Source: Planctomycetota bacterium
GTDB taxonomy: Bacteria > Planctomycetota > JBFWNO01
DNA length: 64,000 nt
Assembly (NCBI GenBank): GCA_050251015.1
Contig: JBFWNO010000001.1
Span: forward strand, 80,645-144,644
Direction of reading: 5' to 3'
Shown piece after piece: positions 3-9,500 of the stretch. Both the position numbers and the translations under genes were made by a program. Position 1 is the first letter of the stretch, and the number at the start of each line of letters is the position of its first letter. The notes below the pieces were generated by a model. That model ran no database searches. It was not told the origin of the DNA and saw nothing but the letters and a program-made list of their open reading frames with translations.

Positions 3-1628
3 TTCATCCTCCGCTACAGGACCTGGCAACCCTGGGCTTTGATGGCCGGCGGTGGATGTCTGGCCAGTCTTTTCGGAGCCGCCCTTCTCCGGCTTTCAGG
101 GCAGGGTCTCTTGGTGGAACAGATGGTCACCAGCCGCACCCGCGAATTGGTGGCAGCCAGGGCCCAGGCCGAGCGGGCTGCCAGGAGCAAGATGGACTTC
201 CTGGCCAACATGAGCCACGAGGTACGCACGCCCATGAATGCCATCCTCGGGATGTCCGACATGCTGGCCGAGTCCCCGCTCAACGAGGAACAGCGCAACT
301 ACGTGAGCGTGTTCCGCCGTGCCGGCGAAGACCTTTTGGAACTGATCAATGACATCCTGGATATGGCCCGGGTGGAAGGCGGCAGTCTGACCCTCAACCC
401 GCAAAGCTTCAACCTGCGCGAATGCATAGCCTCAGCCATGGCTCTCATGCGCCCGAAGGCCCTCAAGAAGGGCTTGGTCATCACCCACCACGTGGAAGCC
501 GGCGTTCCGGAATGGGTTCTGGGCGACCCCCTGCGGCTCCGCCAAATCCTCCTGAATCTGTTGGGAAACGCCATCAAGTTCACGGAACGCGGGGCGGTCA
601 AGCTCCATGTGGAACCGGAGTCGGGCAGTCCCAGGTTGCATTTCAGCATCCAAGATACAGGTGTAGGGTTCGACCCCCGCGAGGCCTCCAGACTGTTCAC
701 CCGCTTCAGCCAGCTCGATTCCCATTCATCCGACCAGCGCGGCAGCAGCGGTCTGGGCCTGGCCATCTGCAGTCACCTTGTGGACCTGATGCAGGGAAGA
801 ATCTGGGCCGAAAGCGCCAAGCAACTGGGAAGCACCTTTCATTTCACGGCCCTCCTCCCCCTCACCTCCAAACCCCAGGAAACCGAGAAGCCCGAATCCG
901 CGGTCCCCACGGCAACCAGGGAACTGGGCAGGTCCCTGAGAATCCTGGTGGCTGAGGATAATGAGGACAACCGCCTGTTGGTCCAGGCTCTCCTCAAGGG
1001 TTTCCCCGTGGATCTGACCTTCGCCTTTGACGGACTCAAGGCTGTGGAGGCTGCCCAGACCTCCTTCTTCGACATGATCTTCATGGACATCCAGATGCCC
1101 GTTCTCGACGGCCTTTCGGCAACTCGCCGCCTGCGTTCGATCGAAGCGGAATCAAAAAAGGCCAGGATCCCCATCGTGGCGCTCACCGCCCACGCCATGG
1201 AAACCAGCCTGAACGATTCCATTGCCGCGGGATGCGATGCGCACCTGACGAAGCCCGTGTCGCGCGAGCAGATCTTGGCCTCCATTCTTCAGCACACCGG
1301 CGTGGCTCTCCAGCGATTTGAATCCTCGCCTGCGCCCATGGCGCGACCAGAAGTCGAGGGGATTGCCGATCTTGTGCCCACCTTCCTGGGAAACCGCCGC
1401 AAGGAGATTCCGGTGCTCAGGGATCACCTGGCGGCCCGCCGCCTCCCCGACATCGCCAAGATAGCCCACAACCTCAAGGGATTGGGTGCGGGTTACGGGT
1501 TCCCCTCCATCAGCGACCTCGGCAGGCGGCTGGAGACCGCCGCCAAGGCGGACGACCCGGCGGCCTGTGGCAAGTTTGTCGAGGAGCTGGCCGCCTACCT
1601 CGACACGATCAGCCCAGTATCCTCTTGA
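3..1628 (+). CDS. hybrid sensor histidine kinase/response regulator with C-terminal HPt domain (probably 5'-partial)
   Basis: H-box FLANMSHEVRTPMNAI; ATPase boxes LLNLLGNAIKFT, DTGVGF, GSSGLGLAI; receiver domain ILVAEDNEDN...FMDIQMPVLDG...TKP; HPt-like HNLKGLGAGYGF. The frame is open from nt 3 up to the TTG/ATG at 39/42. Confidence 0.9.
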   Translation, partial: FILRYRTWQPWALMAGGGCLASLFGAALLRLSGQGLLVEQMVTSRTRELVAARAQAERAARSKMDFLANMSHEVRTPMNAILGMSDMLAESPLNEEQRNYVSVFRRAGEDLLELINDILDMARVEGGSLTLNPQSFNLRECIASAMALMRPKALKKGLVITHHVEAGVPEWVLGDPLRLRQILLNLLGNAIKFTERGAVKLHVEPESGSPRLHFSIQDTGVGFDPREASRLFTRFSQLDSHSSDQRGSSGLGLAICSHLVDLMQGRIWAESAKQLGSTFHFTALLPLTSKPQETEKPESAVPTATRELGRSLRILVAEDNEDNRLLVQALLKGFPVDLTFAFDGLKAVEAAQTSFFDMIFMDIQMPVLDGLSATRRLRSIEAESKKARIPIVALTAHAMETSLNDSIAAGCDAHLTKPVSREQILASILQHTGVALQRFESSPAPMARPEVEGIADLVPTFLGNRRKEIPVLRDHLAARRLPDIAKIAHNLKGLGAGYGFPSISDLGRRLETAAKADDPAACGKFVEELAAYLDTISPVSS

Positions 1629-1977
1629 TCTCCATCAGGAGCTTGTCGAACTCGAGGGGTTTGAGCAGGTAATTGTCGCAACCTTTCGAGTATCCCGTGA
1701 GCATGTCCCAATCCTCGCTGCGGGCCGTGAGAAAGAGGATGGGGGTGGAGGCATGGTCACGGGTTTCGCGGATCTTCTGGCAGGTCTCGAAACCATCCAT
1801 CACCGGCATCATCACGTCGAGGATCACAAGATCGGGCTTGGTGCCCTTCTCCAGTTTTTCCAGGGCATCGGCTCCGTGGATAGCCTCCTCCACCTCAAAT
1901 CCCGCCTTCCGGAGCCTGAGGGCCACGATACCCCTAAGGTCATTTTCATCATCCACCAACAAGATGCGCTGGGCCAT
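1609..1977 (-). CDS. single-domain response regulator (CheY-like receiver)
   Basis: 122 aa; LLVDDENDL...DLVILDVMMPVMDG...FLTA...LLKP. AAGGAG lies upstream of the ATG. The 3' end overlaps the kinase 3' end by 20 nt (convergent). Confidence 0.9.
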   Translation of the reverse strand: MAQRILLVDDENDLRGIVALRLRKAGFEVEEAIHGADALEKLEKGTKPDLVILDVMMPVMDGFETCQKIRETRDHASTPILFLTARSEDWDMLTGYSKGCDNYLLKPLEFDKLLMEIKRILG

Positions 1978-1988
1978 CGGGTTCTCCT

Positions 1989-2399
1989 TCAGATTGTCTG
2001 CCCCGGGGGCTCGTCGCGGGGCACTTCCACCCAGTTGCCGCGCTTTGCCCTCAGGATAATGTTTGAGTACAGGTCCTCATTGACCTTGAAGATTTCCACA
2101 CCCATGCCTTCCTGCCCGGCCTCGTGGGAAATCCAGGTGACCCTCGCCAGGGCCTTGACCTCGCGGTTTTGGGCCTCGAAGGCGAAGATGATTTCCAGGA
2201 CGGTTTCGGGGGGCAGGAGATCGTGCGTGTTGATGAACACGCCCATCTCGGAGACGTTGCTGGCCTTAGCCGTGTAGGTGCTGAAGGATTTCTGTTCCTT
2301 CTGGGCCCCTGAAAGATCGAGCTTGCGGAAGCGGATCCCCACGTTGCCGGGAAACCGCTTGAAGCGCCTCTTCTCGTTGTCGAACACGCTGTCAGTCAT
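1989..2399 (-). CDS. PilZ domain protein (c-di-GMP receptor type)
   Basis: 136 aa; carries RRFKR (RxxxR) and NVSEMG ((D/N)xSxxG) motifs. Lies 8 nt downstream of the birA stop. Confidence 0.8.
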   Translation of the reverse strand: MTDSVFDNEKRRFKRFPGNVGIRFRKLDLSGAQKEQKSFSTYTAKASNVSEMGVFINTHDLLPPETVLEIIFAFEAQNREVKALARVTWISHEAGQEGMGVEIFKVNEDLYSNIILRAKRGNWVEVPRDEPPGQTI

Positions 2400-2407
2400 G
2401 GATGGCC

Positions 2408-3124
2408 CTATTGTAATGAAGGCCAGTGCTCGCGGAGCTGGCTGGCCCTCAGGATGGCCCGACCCGCCGCACTGGTGAGCGACACTTCGTCGCTTCTCAG
2501 GGAGACCCCCGTGATCCTGCCCCTAAACGCCGCGGAACCTTCGGAGAGGTCTGTCTCGCGGCCATGCCACAGCTCGATCCACCGGGCTTCAAGGCGCCCT
2601 TCATCCCAGATAGAGATCGTGGCAAGTCGGCTCACAATGGACTCGGCCCAACCCATGAGATCGGCTTCGGTCGATGCCAAGGACAGGTGTCCAGACCCGG
2701 CGGGCCACGGTGCGTTTCCGATGTTCAACCCCAATCCCAGCACCACCCCCCCGTCCACAACCTCGCCAAGGATGCCGCCCAGCTTGAGGCCATCACGCTC
2801 GATGTCATTGGGCCACTTCAACGAAGCAGCCAATCCCCGATTCCGGATCTCCTCGACCACGGCCACACCCATGGCCAGAGACCAGCCCAGCACCCGCTTG
2901 CACATCGGTACCTTCACGCTCATATACAGGCCGCCGACAGGAGAGATCCATGTGTGATCGGAGCGTCCCCTTCCCCCCGTCTGGCTCAGGGCCATGATCC
3001 ATTCACCCGTGAAGGAGGGTCTTTCCTTGAGCCAGTCACTGGTGCTGGAAAGCTGGGCGAACACCCTGCCAGGAAGAGGGTCCCAGGGGGGACTCAGGGG
3101 TTCCTTGGTGTACACTTGGCCCAT
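2408..3124 (-). CDS. birA: biotin--[acetyl-CoA-carboxylase] ligase, group I (no HTH domain)
   Basis: GRGRSDHTWISPVGGLYMS and KWPNDI motifs. GAGGG lies 7 nt upstream of ATG 3124. Alternative starts are at 3151 (ATG) and 3175 (TTG). Confidence 0.85.
   Translation of the reverse strand: MGQVYTKEPLSPPWDPLPGRVFAQLSSTSDWLKERPSFTGEWIMALSQTGGRGRSDHTWISPVGGLYMSVKVPMCKRVLGWSLAMGVAVVEEIRNRGLAASLKWPNDIERDGLKLGGILGEVVDGGVVLGLGLNIGNAPWPAGSGHLSLASTEADLMGWAESIVSRLATISIWDEGRLEARWIELWHGRETDLSEGSAAFRGRITGVSLRSDEVSLTSAAGRAILRASQLREHWPSLQ
3111..3116 (+). promoter_or_regulatory. candidate -10 box (TACACT) for a leaderless transcript of the 3123 gene
   Basis: The hexamer lies exactly 6 nt upstream of ATG 3123 and there is no Shine-Dalgarno sequence. 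The same geometry recurs at 12303, 17108, 17175, 30608, 30631, 55250, 63679 and 63719. Confidence 0.4.
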
Positions 3125-3587
3125 GAAAACGCCCTCACTGTTCGGAGCCATTGCCCTGAGGCTCAACCTGGTCAACGAGCTTCAGCTCAACCAGGCCCTC
3201 GAGGACCAGACTCGCCGGCGATCAGCCGGAAAGCCCGGGCTCCTGGGGGAGATTTTACGTGAACGGCACGCCCTCACCGAGGAAGGACTCAGGAAGGTGC
3301 TCGAGGTGCAGAAATCGGTTGAGCTGGCGCTCGAGGATACTCTTTTCGGCGAACTAGCCATCAGCCACGGCTTCATCACGGCCGCCCAGCTCGACAAGAG
3401 CCTGGCGCGCCAACGGGAAGACGGCTTCAGGCAGAGGATTGGCTCCCTTCTGGTGGCAGCGGGCTCCCTGGAACCCGGTCGACGCGATGCCATCCTCGCG
3501 GCCCAGTCGCGCCTCCGGGACAAGCTCGCCGCCTCCACCGGCATCCTCCCCAAGCCGGTGTTGCCGACCAAGCGCCTCCGCCGTTAG
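3123..3587 (+). CDS. stand-alone protein made of four T2SSE_N/MshEN-type 24-residue repeats (putative c-di-GMP binding)
   Basis: 154 aa. Repeats are LFGAIALRLNLVNELQLNQALEDQ, LLGEILRERHALTEEGLRKVLEVQ, LFGELAISHGFITAAQLDKSLARQ and RIGSLLVAAGSLEPGRRDAILAAQ. No ATPase domain is present. Confidence 0.65.
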   Translation: MKTPSLFGAIALRLNLVNELQLNQALEDQTRRRSAGKPGLLGEILRERHALTEEGLRKVLEVQKSVELALEDTLFGELAISHGFITAAQLDKSLARQREDGFRQRIGSLLVAAGSLEPGRRDAILAAQSRLRDKLAASTGILPKPVLPTKRLRR

Positions 3588-6500
3588 CGGGCCGGCGGAG
3601 CAGCCTCCAGCACGATGGCGCCCTTGGCCCCGGCCTCGACGAGGATGGCGAAGCGTTCGATCTCGCCCTGGGACTCGGTGCTCACCGAGGCGTAATCGAA
3701 GCGGCCGCGGATGTCGGTGTTGCCGTCTTTGTGGAAGACCACGCGGCCATCCTTCAGGCGGGCGTAGACCTTCACATAGGCGGCCGGCACCAGCTTGCCG
3801 TCGGCCAGCGTCTGCACCCGCAGGTGCCCGGCCCTGTCCATCACCTGCACATTGAGATCGTGGCGGCTGAACATGGCACTGGAGGAAAGGCCTCCCGACA
3901 CCGCTTCCACCATCAACGGACGGTTGCGCAAGGCTTCCGGGACTTCCACTTCGCGCCGTCCGTCCGTGAGCTCAGTCTCCACCACATGGCGTGCGGCCAC
4001 ATGGGAGAAGCAACCCGAGGCTGCCCGCACAAAGGGATTGATGGAGAACATCTGCTCCAGATCCACCTCATGGAAGCTCAAGCGGCACTTCTCAAGGGAC
4101 TTCGAGGTGAGAACAAGCTTGCCTTCCTCGCTGGTCAGCGCCAGAAGGGGCTGACTGTTCCCCAGGGCCTCGTTACCACTTCCCTCCACGATCTGACCAC
4201 TCGCTTCGTCCAGGTGGCGGAGAGCCTCGACAAAACGCGTCCTCCAAAGCTCCACCGGATAGTCCTTGTAGCCCTCCGCAATCTCGCGGGCCTTCCCAAA
4301 TTCGCCACCATAGATCGATGCGCACACAGACATGTAGTCGTGCTGCAGCCCCATGCCATCACTGCGGGGGATCTTGGCAAAAAACGCTAGGGCCTCCTCG
4401 ATCCTGTCCTGGAGGAAGAGGAAATAGACCAACGTCATGGAGTCCGCTGCCGTGGGGACCTGGCGATGGGCCAGGGCCTCCAGGAAACTGCGGTACTGGG
4501 TCATGATGGCGGCATTGGTGATCTTGCGGACAGCCCCGAACCGGTAGGTCCTGGCGTTCACCAGGGGATCAAACTCGGTGTGCACCCTGAATCTCCGCTC
4601 CAGGGGGTCCACACTCAAAAGTTCGCATTCAAACAGGGGGCCCACTGCCGAGGCCATCGTGGAGTTTTCCAGGTAGGTCTTCATCCTCTTCCTGTCATCA
4701 TGCTTGAAGGCGTAAGCCCACAACGGCGCTGTGTAGACCATGCGCTTCTCCAGGGCCTCGATGATGTCCTCGTAATCGCCCTGATCCCCAAGCCGGAAGG
4801 CGATCCGATCAAGGTTGATCTCCATCAGGTTGTGATCGTTGATGAAATCCACCACGTCACCTGTCGACCCTTCCTGGGAAACATAGTCCCAGCTGTTCTT
4901 GTCGGCCTCAGCGGCTTCGGAGCGGACCTTCAGCTCCATGCCGTTGGTAGAAGCCGAATACTCCGAGCGGCAGGAGACCTGAGCTCCGCCCTGCGCGAAC
5001 GATCCTGCTTCGGGAAAGTAGAAGTGCAGATCCACGGCAACCGTGGCGTGGGCTTCCAGTACCAGGGTCCGGCGTAGGGTGGGGCGGCAACCACTGACAG
5101 GCAGTGATCCACGAGGGATTTGGGCTAAGACACCAAGGGTCAGCCTTCGGCTTGAGGGGTTGGTGATCACCACCTCGCAACCGTAGACCTTGCCCGCCTG
5201 GAGGTCGCCCTGGACAAAGTTGTCGACTTGCTCACCGTTTTCGCGGCGATAACGCTCCATGGCCGGATAGATGTTCTGGCCCACAAGCACCTGCGGGCCC
5301 TTGGAATCGCCATCCGCCGGACGATTTTCCTCAACGAGGGCCACCAGGGGTGAACCGGCCTTCAATGTGTAGCGCCGACCTTCACCAGCCTCCTCATGCT
5401 TCTCGGCCTTCTCAGGGAGTCCAAGCACGGAAAGAGCCAGCATCATCTCCGTGAAGTTGCCGGCTGCCTTGTCGAGGTGCGACGACAGGAAAGGAATTCC
5501 TGCAGGGCTCGCGGCATAGTCCAGCCAGAAGTCGTCGACACCGACCAAATCGGCTCCTTGTTGGTCGGGACGGAGATGATGGTAGTTGTTTTCAATCCAG
5601 GCCTTCGTAGGTTTGAGAGCCAGATAGACAGCCGCCCTAGCCCTGGAACTCTCGTATGCCTCATTGTCGTCCTTGGTGTCCATCGATGAAACATTGTCGA
5701 AATCAGCCATGGACGCGCTGTCTCCGTTTTCCGCCTCATTGGCCGGGTTGGGAGCCGGTGCCGCTTCCTCAAGGCTTCTCATGGCTTTCATTTCCTCACG
5801 GCCCATCCACTGGTTGGCATGGCTCTTGGCTTTCTTGAAGGCCGACACCTGTCCCGGGGCACCGGGATCCCCGGCAAGTTCCGAGGCGAAACCCTTTTCG
5901 AAAAAGGCGTCAAGGGTTTCGGTTTCCGGAGGCATCAGATCCAGGGTGTCACGGAGGAGTTTTGTGATCTCGTTCCGGCCAAGTTTCCTGGCCAGAAGGA
6001 TCTTTTCGACCGCATTGAGGCGCGAGAACTCGAAAGGCTCGAGATACCTCGCCAGGTCTTCGCCCAAAAGCCAGCGGTCCATGAAGGTCCTGTCCTTCTT
6101 GCACGTCAGGAAAGGCTTGACGACTCCGTTGAAGAATTCCGGATCTTTTTCATGGATGAAGAAATTGAGTTCATGGCAGGCATGCTTGGAGTAGAGGTCC
6201 TTCTTGGATGTGGCATCTAGGCCATTCCATTGGGTGATGAAGCGGAATTCACCGAGCATCGCGTTCCCTGAAAGGGACATGAAAAGGCTGTGCACGCTTT
6301 CCAGGGAGTCATACATCCTGAAGTCCGATGACGTCACATCGGCGATTTCCAGATTGTCCCCTCCTTTGAGGGTGCGGAGTTCCCTCACCCCCACGACCTT
6401 GGCGCCCGGCTCAAGGGCCACAGCCAGTCGCCTATCGCGAAGAGCGATGGATGTGGCCGGCAACCTTGCCGACCTGTATTGAGTGCCTTCCCTTGAGCAG

Positions 6501-9500
6501 GCCGCCACCTGCACATGGGTCCTTTGGCCGAAATCCTTCAGCGGGATCCTGATTTCTCCCGACTCGTTGGGACGGAGGTTGGCGAGAACTAAAGCGGGTT
6601 GGGCGAGAAAATTGTAATTGGGTGCCGAAACCAAACCCATGTCGTCGCCTCTTCCACCACCACCCGATCTTCTTTCCAAACTTTGTCTTCCACCACGGCG
6701 ATTGCCGCCGTAGGCCCCGGCACCGGCTCCTTCCTGGGCAAAGGTCTGGGTGTCGACAAGTTCCATGGGGACAAGCAAGAGGCTGGGTCGGGGGATCATC
6801 AAGCCGGGATAACGGGTCACGGACTGCCGATCAAGAATGTAGCGAACCTCATCGCCAAGGGGAACATTGGGGCTGAACTCGTTTCCGACAAGATCCTCGA
6901 CAACCCCCGAAGGGGCAGTGAACCCCGACCGCAGGTTGGAGAAGACAGTGGAAGGCGTTGCAAATGTCGAAGCAATGATGTGCACTCGACTGTCATCCGA
7001 GGCATGAGTCAACCTGACAACCAAGTCATCCCCATCCGGTGACACCGAGGCCAGTCCCAAGGGATGGGCCTGTGAAAGACCCAGGGTGCGTCGCTGGCCT
7101 ACAACGGCCTGGCCCACTTGGGCCCCCTTCTCAACGCGCACAATGAGCTGACCTCTCCTTGAGACAAGGTGATAGTCGCCCGCCGCGAGATTCTTGAGGG
7201 TCAGGATCCCATCCTGCAATGACAGATTTTCCGTCAGATTCTCGTGGTGCAGATTGGAGCGCAAAGAGAAGAGGGCTAGGGATTCGTCGGCAATCGTGCC
7301 GGCAGCCCAAGGCAGTTCCACATCGCCCTCGACACCGTGGATCGACGGTGGCAGTTCCGTGGCCCCTGACTCCCAGAGTGTGAAGGAATGGTCCCCCGAA
7401 AACCTGTCGGACCCCACAACCAGACTGCGAACCCCGGGAAGACCGCCCAGGTTCACGGCCCCAGTGGCATCTGTTTGCAGATGGACATCCTGGGTGTATG
7501 CCAGACCCTTCACCTGAACCTGCAAACGCAGGGTGCGGTGGGCAATGGGCTCGCCATTTTTGCCTGTCACCAGGATCTTGGCCCCCTCGCGGGTCAAGCG
7601 AAGGTGGGGAGCTTCCACACTGAGCGTGGCATCAATGTCATTGAAGGTGCTCATGTGGGAGCTTGAGACGTTCACGGGAACATCATCAAGAAGACGTTCC
7701 ACCTTTCCCGACAGGGTGACCTCCATGGTGCGGAGACCCAAAGGAACCTTGATCCTGTGCACAAGCTCCCCTGCGGTGCTGAGCACCAAGTCTCGGGCAA
7801 CACTGGTCACTGTTGTGCCGTCGATCAGGCCCATATTGATCGTGAGCTCAGGGCTTTTCAAGGCTGCCAGGGAGTGGCGCCTCTGGCCCGCCCAAAGGTT
7901 GGGGCGCACCAGAATCTCACCCTCGCGGCCTTCCAGGAAGCTTTCGCGCTCGACTTCAACACCCAGGTCCAAACGGAAATTCTCTTGCCGGCGCTCCAGG
8001 GTTGTGAGGGCGGCAAAGCCCCCCTCAAAAAGGATCAGAGGCTCCTGCTTGCCCACGGGGGCGAAAGGAATCAGGATATCCCCTTTGTCGTCGGGCAGGT
8101 ATTCCTTGCCCCCCACATGGGCCCGCGCCGACTTCAGCAGGACACCCTCCTCATCGACCACGCGCAGGATCTGTCCCGCCGTTGAATCGCCTTCCACACA
8201 GCGAAGCCTTCCTTTTTGCACCAGGACCCGGCTCTTGATGCCCGAACCGATGAATTCGACGATCCACACGCCGCGATTTTTCATTTCCGGGAACTCGAAG
8301 GTCCTCAGTTCCTGAATGTAAGGTCCTTCGGTGCCCTTCTCTGTGCGGGCTGAAGGACTGACGAGCCCGTCAAGGTTGATGGAGGTGTCGATCTCCTGGC
8401 CCGTGTCCTTGTAGTAACCCAGGGTATTGATTTCGTAGACCCTCACCAGAAGGCGGTCGACATTCTTGAGCAACACCTTTAAGGAGGGTGTTTCGGAGGG
8501 CGCGAACCTCAGAGGGTTTTCGCGCGAAAAATGGATCGACACGGAATTCTTCAGCGCCTCCATGGCGCCTGGCGTAAGCCAATCCGACCATGACGAGGGT
8601 TCGTCACCGGCCAGGATCCGTCCCTCGGCCACGCAGGCCCTCACGAAATCCTCGGTCAGATAGCGGGCATAGGAGCCGACCTTGTCACGTGAATCGGCCA
8701 GGCGGTGGAGCATTTCACGGATCAAGGTTGCCTCACCGAGACCGGGTTGAGGTACGCAAGACTCCCCTGAATACCTGTTGGAACGGACCCCTTCGGCCTG
8801 TCTCTTGGCGAATTCACTCAAGTGAGGCCTGTAACGAGGCAGGTTGAGATATTCGACAAATAGTTCCTGGTCGGCTTTTCCCTCGGCCAAATCCAGGAGC
8901 AGGATATTCATGAGGATGCGGGCCTTGAGCTCGGAAAAGGCCGGGCCTAGTTGTGCGGAAAACTCGCGTAAGCGGCTCAAGTGCTGGCGTTGGGTGGATG
9001 GTTCAAGGGGGTCCTCAGATTCCGTCGGCGACAACCGGCGAACGACCGCCTCGACATAGCCTTCATAGCCCATCAACGCGGGATGCCGCTGGGCCAGATC
9101 CCGCAATTGGGTCAGGGTCAATTCATTGTGAACGGGTCTGGCTCCAAAGGTGACGCCTCCCTGAGGATCACTGAGGTCGACCACAATGAGGTCGAGAAGC
9201 CCATCGACATCGGGGCGCTTGAGCCGCTGGAGAAGGTTGATCCTCTGCTCTCTGGTGAGGTTCCTCTTCACCAACGCCGGCAACATCTCATCGGAGAAGG
9301 ACGCCAGACTCAGGCGATCGCTGCTGAGCTGCCTTTCCGTGATGCGCTCCACGTCGAGGATGTCATGGGGCAGGGTGTTGGGATATTGGTTGGGGCGTGT
9401 GGACTGTTCCTTTTGGTGGTTGAATCTCAAGCCAAGCCGCTCCGTCAGAAAGCGGAGCGCGGTTTCCTTGTTGTCGCCATAAGTCCCCAGCACCTGACGG

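Follow-up and report, generated by a model that had tools for sequence, protein, structure and literature searches.

In networks of the second messenger cyclic di-GMP (c-di-GMP), known receptors are said to be too few for the many enzymes of its synthesis and breakdown. A stretch of 64 kb from a Planctomycetota bacterium (contig JBFWNO010000001.1; hereafter the window, numbered from its first letter) raises the question whether a protein built solely of MshEN-type motifs could be one of the missing receptors. An ATG-to-TAG open reading frame (ORF) of 154 codons at 3123-3587 on the plus strand encodes four tandem copies of the 24-residue motif that, as a pair, forms MshEN, a c-di-GMP-binding domain of secretion and pilus ATPases. 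Wang et al. (2016), who defined this motif (PMC5013675), designate its tandem MshEN_N, which is MshEN's N-terminal subdomain. Below we describe evidence that the ORF is a real gene and that its product is a stand-alone tandem of MshEN_N. The most likely function, by analogy with MshE, is that of a stand-alone c-di-GMP receptor, to which we assign a probability of about 0.5.

The ORF is a real, conserved gene, because an identical protein is annotated in an NCBI Planctomycetota metagenome-assembled genome (AB7F75_00380, ‘hypothetical protein’), homologues with 75%, 68% and 49% identity exist, and the substitutions are concentrated at third codon positions. The latter account for 64 of 115, 72 of 149 and 90 of 191 differences from the three homologues. 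A longer version starting at ATG 2994 (197 aa) can be ruled out, since homologue P0002 begins with the same residues as the 154-aa protein (MKTPSLFG) and the extension would overlap the coding region of a neighbouring BirA-like gene. A shadow ORF at 3182-3571 on the minus strand is non-coding, as both the conservation and the third-position bias sit in the plus frame. The product has a predicted mass of 17 kDa, an isoelectric point (pI) of 10.6 and no apparent signal peptide or transmembrane segment.

The four motifs reported by the initial annotation are present at the positions listed in Table 1, separated by exactly the 10, 10 and 7 residues given there. Gly at position 3, Leu at position 21 and Gln at position 24 occur in all four motifs, Leu at position 17 in three. 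Only motifs 1 and 3 follow the consensus of the initial annotation throughout. Motifs 1 and 2 keep Gly3, Leu17, Leu21 and Gln24 and have Leu at position 1, which in motif 1 stands for Arg. Their position 10 is N15 and H49, respectively, in place of Gly, and R46 of motif 2 stands where the consensus is hydrophobic. Motif 3 shows the full consensus apart from Leu at position 1. Motif 4 is the only one with Arg at position 1; here, S115 occupies a hydrophobic position and R121 replaces the first Leu (position 17; Leu54 in MshE). The three closest homologues all keep R121. The four-motif repeat is far beyond chance. Not one of 200,000 composition-preserving shuffles gave at least two matches, either to the initial pattern or to a looser one, and no other frame in the window (stop-to-stop frames of at least 60 aa) matches the motif.

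Database searches place these motifs in the MshEN family. The NCBIfam model NF053729 (‘c-di-GMP_motif, MshE-related’), whose 53 positions equal the length of two 24-residue motifs and a 5-residue spacer, matches the whole protein in three stretches with E=1.3e-16 and 60.1 bits, above its cut-off of 38 bits. Residues 75-128 align end to end with model positions 2-53. The canonical tandem protein P0006 scores 116 bits. Of the two kinds of profile that the initial annotation had proposed, MshEN and T2SSE_N, only the former detects the protein: Pfam T2SSE_N (PF05157) gives no match at E<=1, because the protein lacks the C-terminal subdomain (T2SSE_N1 of Wang et al.). Sequence matches in the PDB are restricted to the N-termini of PilF, PilB and MshE. 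In the alignment with MshE, residues 75-125 correspond to MshE 10-59, with F75-G76 at L10-G11 and R105-I106-G107 at R38-L39-G40, and the equivalents of MshE Arg9 and Leu54 are replaced by L74 and R121. The MshEN variants G11L/G40I, altered at two of these glycines, have little or no affinity for c-di-GMP. In agreement with the first description, the 154-aa protein contains no ATPase or further domain; it has no Walker motif and the ORF ends at 3587. Weak, sub-threshold Pfam matches to DUF4388 (PF14332) and FumaraseC_C (PF10415) seem to be cross-matches of the motifs and not domain assignments. Weak or precomputed matches to the same two families recur on the MshEN_N motifs of relatives P0005-P0016, and could mislead automatic annotation.

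Structure prediction, which had also been suggested as a check, points in the same direction. Two AlphaFold2 runs with 10 sequences (predicted local distance difference test, pLDDT, 84) and 35 sequences (pLDDT 91.6, predicted template modelling score 0.78) returned the same helices according to DSSP, at residues 6-13, 19-34, 41-47, 53-81, 87-99, 106-112 and 118-139. The predicted fold thus consists of seven helices without β-strands, in which each motif forms a helix-turn-helix and the chain folds into two four-helix bundles. These are connected by the long helix 53-81, which runs from the second helix of motif 2 through a 10-residue linker, where E71-D72 are conserved, into the first helix of motif 3 (pLDDT 94-98 for the block in the second model). 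The top Foldseek match in the PDB is MshE with bound c-di-GMP (5htl; 0.9-1.2 Å over 55-56 columns, 30% identity, probability 1.0), followed by c-di-GMP-bound chains of PilF GSPII-B. Taken over 5htl and 8pdk-type chains, the matches range from 0.9 to 2.5 Å over 54-62 columns at ~30% identity. The models therefore predict the tandem-motif four-helix bundle of the family. Taken together, sequence and predicted structure support the view that the 154-aa protein is a stand-alone tandem of MshEN_N, containing the N-terminal subdomain only.

The chain ends in a basic tail that is predicted to be disordered, with pLDDT values <50 from residue 140 in the first model and from residue 145 in the second. 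Basic or Lys/Pro-rich tails recur among stand-alone relatives. More generally, the C-terminal appendages of stand-alone four-motif proteins are short and varied, being Lys/Pro-rich and basic, zinc-ribbon-like (CxxC...CxxC) or hydrophobic (alignment A3: P0033, P0044, P0042, P0074, P0112, P0115, P0005, P0009, P0010, P0004 and P0099). The hydrophobic tail is possibly a membrane anchor, and the C-terminal tail may set localisation or partner.

Table 1. Coordinates of the tandem MshEN_N gene, its parts and its neighbours in the window.
Feature	Position	Strand	Basis
Stand-alone tandem MshEN_N protein gene	3123..3587 (including stop codon)	+	ORF, homologues, NF053729, AlphaFold2
Motif 1, residues 6-29, LFGAIALRLNLVNELQLNQALEDQ	3138..3209	+	Motif match; model helices 6-13, 19-34
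Motif 2, residues 40-63, LLGEILRERHALTEEGLRKVLEVQ	3240..3311	+	Motif match; model helices 41-47, 53 onward
Motif 3, residues 74-97, LFGELAISHGFITAAQLDKSLARQ	3342..3413	+	Motif match; aligns to MshE 10-32
Motif 4, residues 105-128, RIGSLLVAAGSLEPGRRDAILAAQ	3435..3506	+	Motif match; alignment to MshE
Predicted continuous 29-residue helix, residues 53-81	3279..3365	+	DSSP of both AlphaFold2 models
Basic tail, predicted disordered, residues 140-154, GILPKPVLPTKRLRR, pI 12	3540..3584	+	AlphaFold2 pLDDT
BirA-like biotin-protein-ligase gene	2408..3175 (start uncertain)	-	Pfam BPL_LplA_LipB 4.3e-14; TIGR00121
Single-domain PilZ protein, 136 aa	1989..2399	-	Pfam PilZ 9.2e-07, 29.6 bits
Single-domain REC (response regulator), 122 aa; downstream of PilZ	1609..1977	-	Pfam Response_reg 2.4e-27
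Giant ORF, 2064 aa	3584..9778	-	ORF; N-terminal hydrophobic, signal-like segment MSRYSFRRILMTSLISLPALLAG

The window protein is one of many. We searched 1.84 billion cluster representatives exhaustively with HMMER. At E<=1e-3 there are 1871 matching clusters, of which 285 reach E<=1e-10, mostly as one stretch covering query residues ~5-135. Short proteins of 125-215 aa make up about a quarter of the best 150 matches, and the others are long proteins in which the unit is N-terminal or sometimes internal. We derived a conservation and spacer profile from 144 full, independent four-motif units. Conservation peaks at Gly3 and Gln24, which reach 86-96% across the four motifs (G8 92%, Q29 88%, G42 89%, Q63 86%, G76 94% and Q97 96%), followed by the Leu21 positions, which are Leu in 64-83%. 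At position 1, Arg is frequent in motif 4 alone (56%); motif 1 has Leu, Phe or Val there. Position 17 of motif 4 is V in 30%, R in 23% and L in 15%. The spacer between motifs 1 and 2 is 10 residues in 99 of the 144 units, that between motifs 2 and 3 is 10 in 112, and that between motifs 3 and 4 is 7 (36 units) or 11 (53 units). Spacing of 10/10/7-11 is thus the signature of a large and coherent subfamily. The initial annotation regarded the spacing of the window protein as unusual; it is not, because 10/10/7 combines the modal first two spacers with the second commonest third one, and the solved PilB N-termini 5zfr and 5tsg likewise have 7. The canonical domain has an intra-domain spacer of 5 residues, the window protein one of 10 for motifs 1-2 and one of 7 for motifs 3-4; this length is not a strict criterion, and it also exceeds 5 in the cyanobacterial protein cce_1044. 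With its single stretch of ~130 residues, four Gly3/Gln24 pairs and typical spacers, the window protein belongs to this subfamily.

Among the long members, a Pfam scan of 65 proteins found FHA/Yop-YscD_cpl in 15-16, protein kinase in 9, FapA in 7-8, amidase in 3 and STAS in 2, besides TPR and zinc ribbons. These 65 proteins contain 35 Pfam families in all, and no secretion ATPase (T2SSE) ranks within the 25 most frequent ones. Scans with back-translated patterns found no close relatives in GTDB representative genomes or, in a first pass, in JGI metagenomes. A second JGI metagenome scan recovered only more distant, mostly fused relatives (loci L007-L010). One of these loci, L009, encodes two proteins with MshEN_N motifs. 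The first (3429-4958, plus strand) is a 509-aa Ser/Thr kinase with an N-terminal four-motif unit, a zinc ribbon and a C-terminal hydrophobic segment. The second (5598-7943, minus strand) is a 781-aa protein in which a canonical MshEN_N pair with a 5-residue spacer precedes TPR-like repeats. Both adjoin a REC/winged-helix response regulator.

In our proposal, the 154-aa product would act as a small, basic, cytoplasmic (MshEN_N)2 protein, in which motifs 1 and 2 would build one bundle and motifs 3 and 4 the other. As MshE does, each bundle would be expected to clamp a single c-di-GMP in extended form. The guanines would then be covered by Leu triads and bonded at their Hoogsteen edge by the backbone amides that follow the invariant Gly at position 3, and the invariant Gln at position 24 would bond to the ribose-phosphate. 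Ligand occupancy would then alter the engagement of a partner. As the protein has no output domain, any output would have to pass through a separate partner protein. Three points are inferred: that the protein binds the ligand, that the stoichiometry is up to two and that the output is that of an adaptor. The role of a small c-di-GMP adaptor, as suggested by the initial annotation, is plausible, because the protein stands alone.

Several lines of evidence argue for the receptor. In MshEN, guanine N7 and O6 are bonded by backbone amides from Gly3 and the ribose-phosphate by Gln24 (PMC5013675; PMC12002112), so that the residues conserved in the subfamily are the ones that contact the ligand. The isolated 62-residue MshEN_N subdomain binds c-di-GMP with a dissociation constant (KD) of 0.35 µM (PMC5013675), and the fusion of the four-motif module to signalling outputs (FHA, Pkinase, FapA, STAS) supports a sensory role. 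At the locus itself, the product of the PilZ gene carries the motifs RxxxR (R11-R15) and NxSxxG (N48-G53), which argues that c-di-GMP signalling operates in the organism.

On the other side of the balance are features that weigh against binding. Motifs 1-3 have Leu in place of the guanine-stacking Arg of position 1, and c-di-GMP binding can therefore not be assumed; Ser at position 1 of motif II abolished binding in an engineered PilF9-65 (PMC12002112). In motif 4, Arg121 replaces one of the three guanine-packing leucines of MshE (Leu54), and single mutations of conserved hydrophobic residues cut the affinity of MshEN more than 10-fold. The relaxed pattern of Wang et al. ([RKPN]hGxxhhxx[GAS]hhxxxxhxxxhxx[QNKRYWST]) fits none of the four motifs, and in neither pair do both motifs show the full consensus RLGxx(L/V/I)(L/V/I)xxG(L/V/I)(L/V/I)xxxxLxxxLxxQ. 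Scored alone, motif pairs 1+2 and 3+4 reach 32.9 and 34.2 bits, both below the NF053729 cut-off. The structural matches come with weak Foldseek E-values (0.15-0.3), owing to the shortness of the matched domain. Moreover, motif 3 has its Leu-Phe-Gly within the continuous helix 53-81, which is predicted with confidence, and an additional, stable turn at the N-terminal end of helix α1 occludes the pocket of PilF GSPII-A. Finally, the binding table of Wang et al. contains no stand-alone (MshEN_N)2 protein (PMC5013675).

The same substitutions, pattern failures, low scores of the single motif pairs and buried motif, together with the loss of Gly10 from motifs 1 and 2, would be expected if the protein were a degenerate MshEN_N scaffold. 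Like the N-domains of XpsE/GspE and PilF GSPII-A, it would have kept the fold and lost nucleotide binding, and now serve as an interaction or oligomerisation module. Wang et al. hold that many MshEN domains are probably non-binding now (PMC5013675). We regard such decay as a possible, though tentative, explanation. Gly3 and Gln24 are the best conserved residues of 144 divergent units, which is hard to explain by fold maintenance alone, since MshEN uses the side chains of Gln to contact its ligand, and the Leu21 positions are largely kept as well. In addition, the extension of helix α1 in PilF GSPII-B is labile and unfolds on ligand binding, so that a helical apo model does not exclude binding. 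On balance, we put the odds that the 154-aa protein binds c-di-GMP at roughly even.

A further alternative is that the pocket is functional and serves another messenger, such as 3'3'-cGAMP (cyclic GMP-AMP) or another cyclic di- or oligonucleotide, with positions 1 and 17 and the spacers retuning specificity. MshEN is also able to bind cGAMP (PMC5013675), and the subfamily differs systematically from canonical domains in its hydrophobic position 1 of motifs 1 and 3, its 10/10/7-11 spacers in place of 5 and the frequent Arg-Asp at positions 17-18 of motif 4. However, there is no positive evidence for a different ligand, the conserved Gly/Gln contacts, which involve the backbone or the ribose-phosphate, serve guanine recognition in MshEN together with the Leu cluster, and the neighbouring PilZ points to c-di-GMP. 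This makes a switch of ligand unlikely, and a c-di-GMP receptor remains our preferred reading.

Does the genomic context reveal a partner? On its 3' side, the gene lies stop-to-stop against a giant convergent ORF, as first reported, and the two stop codons overlap in the sequence TTAG at 3584-3587. The overlap and the hydrophobic, signal-like segment at the N-terminus of the giant could suggest that the window protein is a dedicated regulator or chaperone of this putatively secreted 2064-aa protein, and the initial annotation took the placement as a functional clue. We consider such a role very improbable. Convergent genes are not co-transcribed, and the adjacency is not conserved at the three related loci L002, L003 and L004. 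In L004, the downstream convergent gene encodes an aminotransferase and no giant homologue was detected on the contig, while the 3' flanks in L002 and L003 contain no overlapping convergent ORF end that resembles the C-terminus of the giant. More distant stand-alone relatives have unrelated neighbours, adjoining REC, REC-SpoIIE or housekeeping genes. A functional link to the giant gene is therefore rejected. The giant ORF itself has no Pfam or NCBIfam match and no PDB chain sequence match at E<=1. In L003, a GC-rich inverted repeat (GCCTCGCG/TCGCGAGGC) directly follows the stop codon of the homologue (68% identity) at 1437-1465, which may be a terminator-like hairpin; in its place, the window has the overlapping stop codon of the giant ORF. 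Beyond the giant ORF, the window contains genes for glycerol metabolism, NadA and QueA.

On the 5' side, the initial annotation had described the gene as divergent from a PilZ-REC operon. The PilZ and REC genes are indeed on the minus strand, but the immediate divergent neighbour is the BirA-like gene, with PilZ following downstream on the same strand. The BirA-like protein matches TIGR00121 with 84 bits (cut-off 83.1). All candidate starts of its gene (TTG 3175, TTG 3166, ATG 3151, ATG 3124 and GTG 3115) abut or overlap ATG 3123 of the tandem MshEN_N gene, and ATG 3124 on the minus strand and ATG 3123 on the plus strand share the palindrome CATG. The two genes are thus divergent with essentially no intergenic DNA, which places the promoter of each inside the other gene. 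Positions 2700-3900 gave no hit in a consensus scan for promoters and terminators.

The divergent pairing with a BirA-like gene recurs in three of three related loci, L002 (75% identity of the MshEN_N protein), L003 (68%) and L004 (49%). The order BirA-like, then PilZ, is shared by L003 (PilZ 90% identical) and L004, where the N-terminal 22 aa of PilZ are visible (82%); the PilZ-BirA-like pair occupies 1-976 in L003, 3-801 in L004 and 1989-3175 in the window. The BirA-like proteins are 36-61% identical across the loci, and PilZ is much better conserved with 82-90%. As the BirA-like protein of L004 is only 36% identical, the synteny spans appreciable divergence. The conserved genomic association is that with the divergent BirA-like/PilZ gene pair only.

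The biotin ligase is thereby located between two predicted c-di-GMP receptors. The wider neighbourhood is dense in signalling genes: a 970-aa hybrid kinase with the architecture MASE1-CHASE-HisKA-HATPase-REC-Hpt (L001 1977-4889; its C-terminal part corresponds to 39-1628 on the plus strand of the window) is encoded convergently to the string of REC, PilZ and BirA-like genes, and a gene for a GAF-PAS-REC protein lies upstream. A regular-expression scan of the window found no GGDEF signature and two isolated EALAR strings, which are pattern matches alone.

The predicted rigid inter-bundle helix and the conserved gene pair can be combined into a more far-reaching, and in our view improbable, model. 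Here, the four-motif unit with its 10/10/7-11 spacers would be a distinct two-site nucleotide switch and more than two MshEN_N domains, in which binding to the motif-3 half-site would require melting of helix 53-81 and would convert a rigid dumbbell into a hinged form. In this planctomycete clade, it would couple c-di-GMP or another dinucleotide to the BirA-like/PilZ pair, for example to protein biotinylation or lipid synthesis.

For the window itself, the result is an ordinary one, a plausible predicted receptor of a catalogued architecture. The subfamily is of wider interest, owing to its size and coherence, its non-canonical spacing, the long inter-bundle helix and, within this clade, the BirA-like/PilZ pairing. 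Hundreds of protein clusters contain the four-motif MshEN_N unit, a widespread input module that is portable between outputs. Small stand-alone receptors are easily missed: like the window protein, ten stand-alone relatives are unnamed or ‘hypothetical’ in public sources. If the proteins bind c-di-GMP, the subfamily could be labelled by annotation pipelines, and the two-bundle geometry would represent a compact two-site c-di-GMP sensor. If they do not, they would provide a large example of MshEN_N decaying into a pure interaction scaffold.

In relation to known systems, the window protein is a divergent member of an already catalogued architecture and not a new one. Wang et al. include a stand-alone “(MshEN_N)2” protein, cce_1044 (ACB50395) of Cyanothece sp. 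ATCC 51142, in their Supplementary Table 4 and Fig. 3, and the same table contains (MshEN_N)2-CheX and (MshEN_N)2-REC-cyclase (PMC5013675). A full-text literature search found no published characterisation of a stand-alone tandem MshEN_N protein. Both cce_1044 and the window protein are ~145-154 aa long and contain four 24-residue motifs in two MshEN_N units, with spacers of >5 residues and neither a T2SSE_N1/MshEN_C subdomain nor an ATPase. They differ in their phylum (Cyanobacteria versus Planctomycetota), and further distinctions of the window protein are its 10/10/7 spacers and the hydrophobic residue with which motifs 1-3 begin. Since cce_1044 is not among the 150 best matches listed, close kinship between the two is not supported.

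The N-terminal domain of Vibrio cholerae MshE (5HTL) and GSPII-B of Thermus thermophilus PilF (8PDK) share the tandem 24-residue helix-turn-helix and the four-helix bundle with the window protein. Unlike these, the window protein lacks a C-terminal α/β subdomain as well as an ATPase, carries two predicted bundles per chain on one long helix and has spacers of 7 and 10 instead of 5. Tandem MshEN_N also occurs in multi-domain proteins, such as Geobacter lovleyi Glov_2742, a (MshEN_N)2-CheX protein, and Myxococcus xanthus MXAN_7396, a (MshEN_N)2-REC-cyclase. In both, the four motifs form an N-terminal sensory module, and motif 1 reads F-G or L-F-G, as it does in the window protein. P. aeruginosa PA3740 is a multi-domain protein containing MshEN; in contrast to such proteins, the window protein has no output domain. 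Its functional analogues are the single-domain PilZ adaptors, one of which the locus itself encodes. With their β-barrel fold and the motifs RxxxR and D/NxSxxG they are unrelated to the window protein, but they exemplify how small, stand-alone second-messenger receptors act through ligand-dependent binding of a partner.

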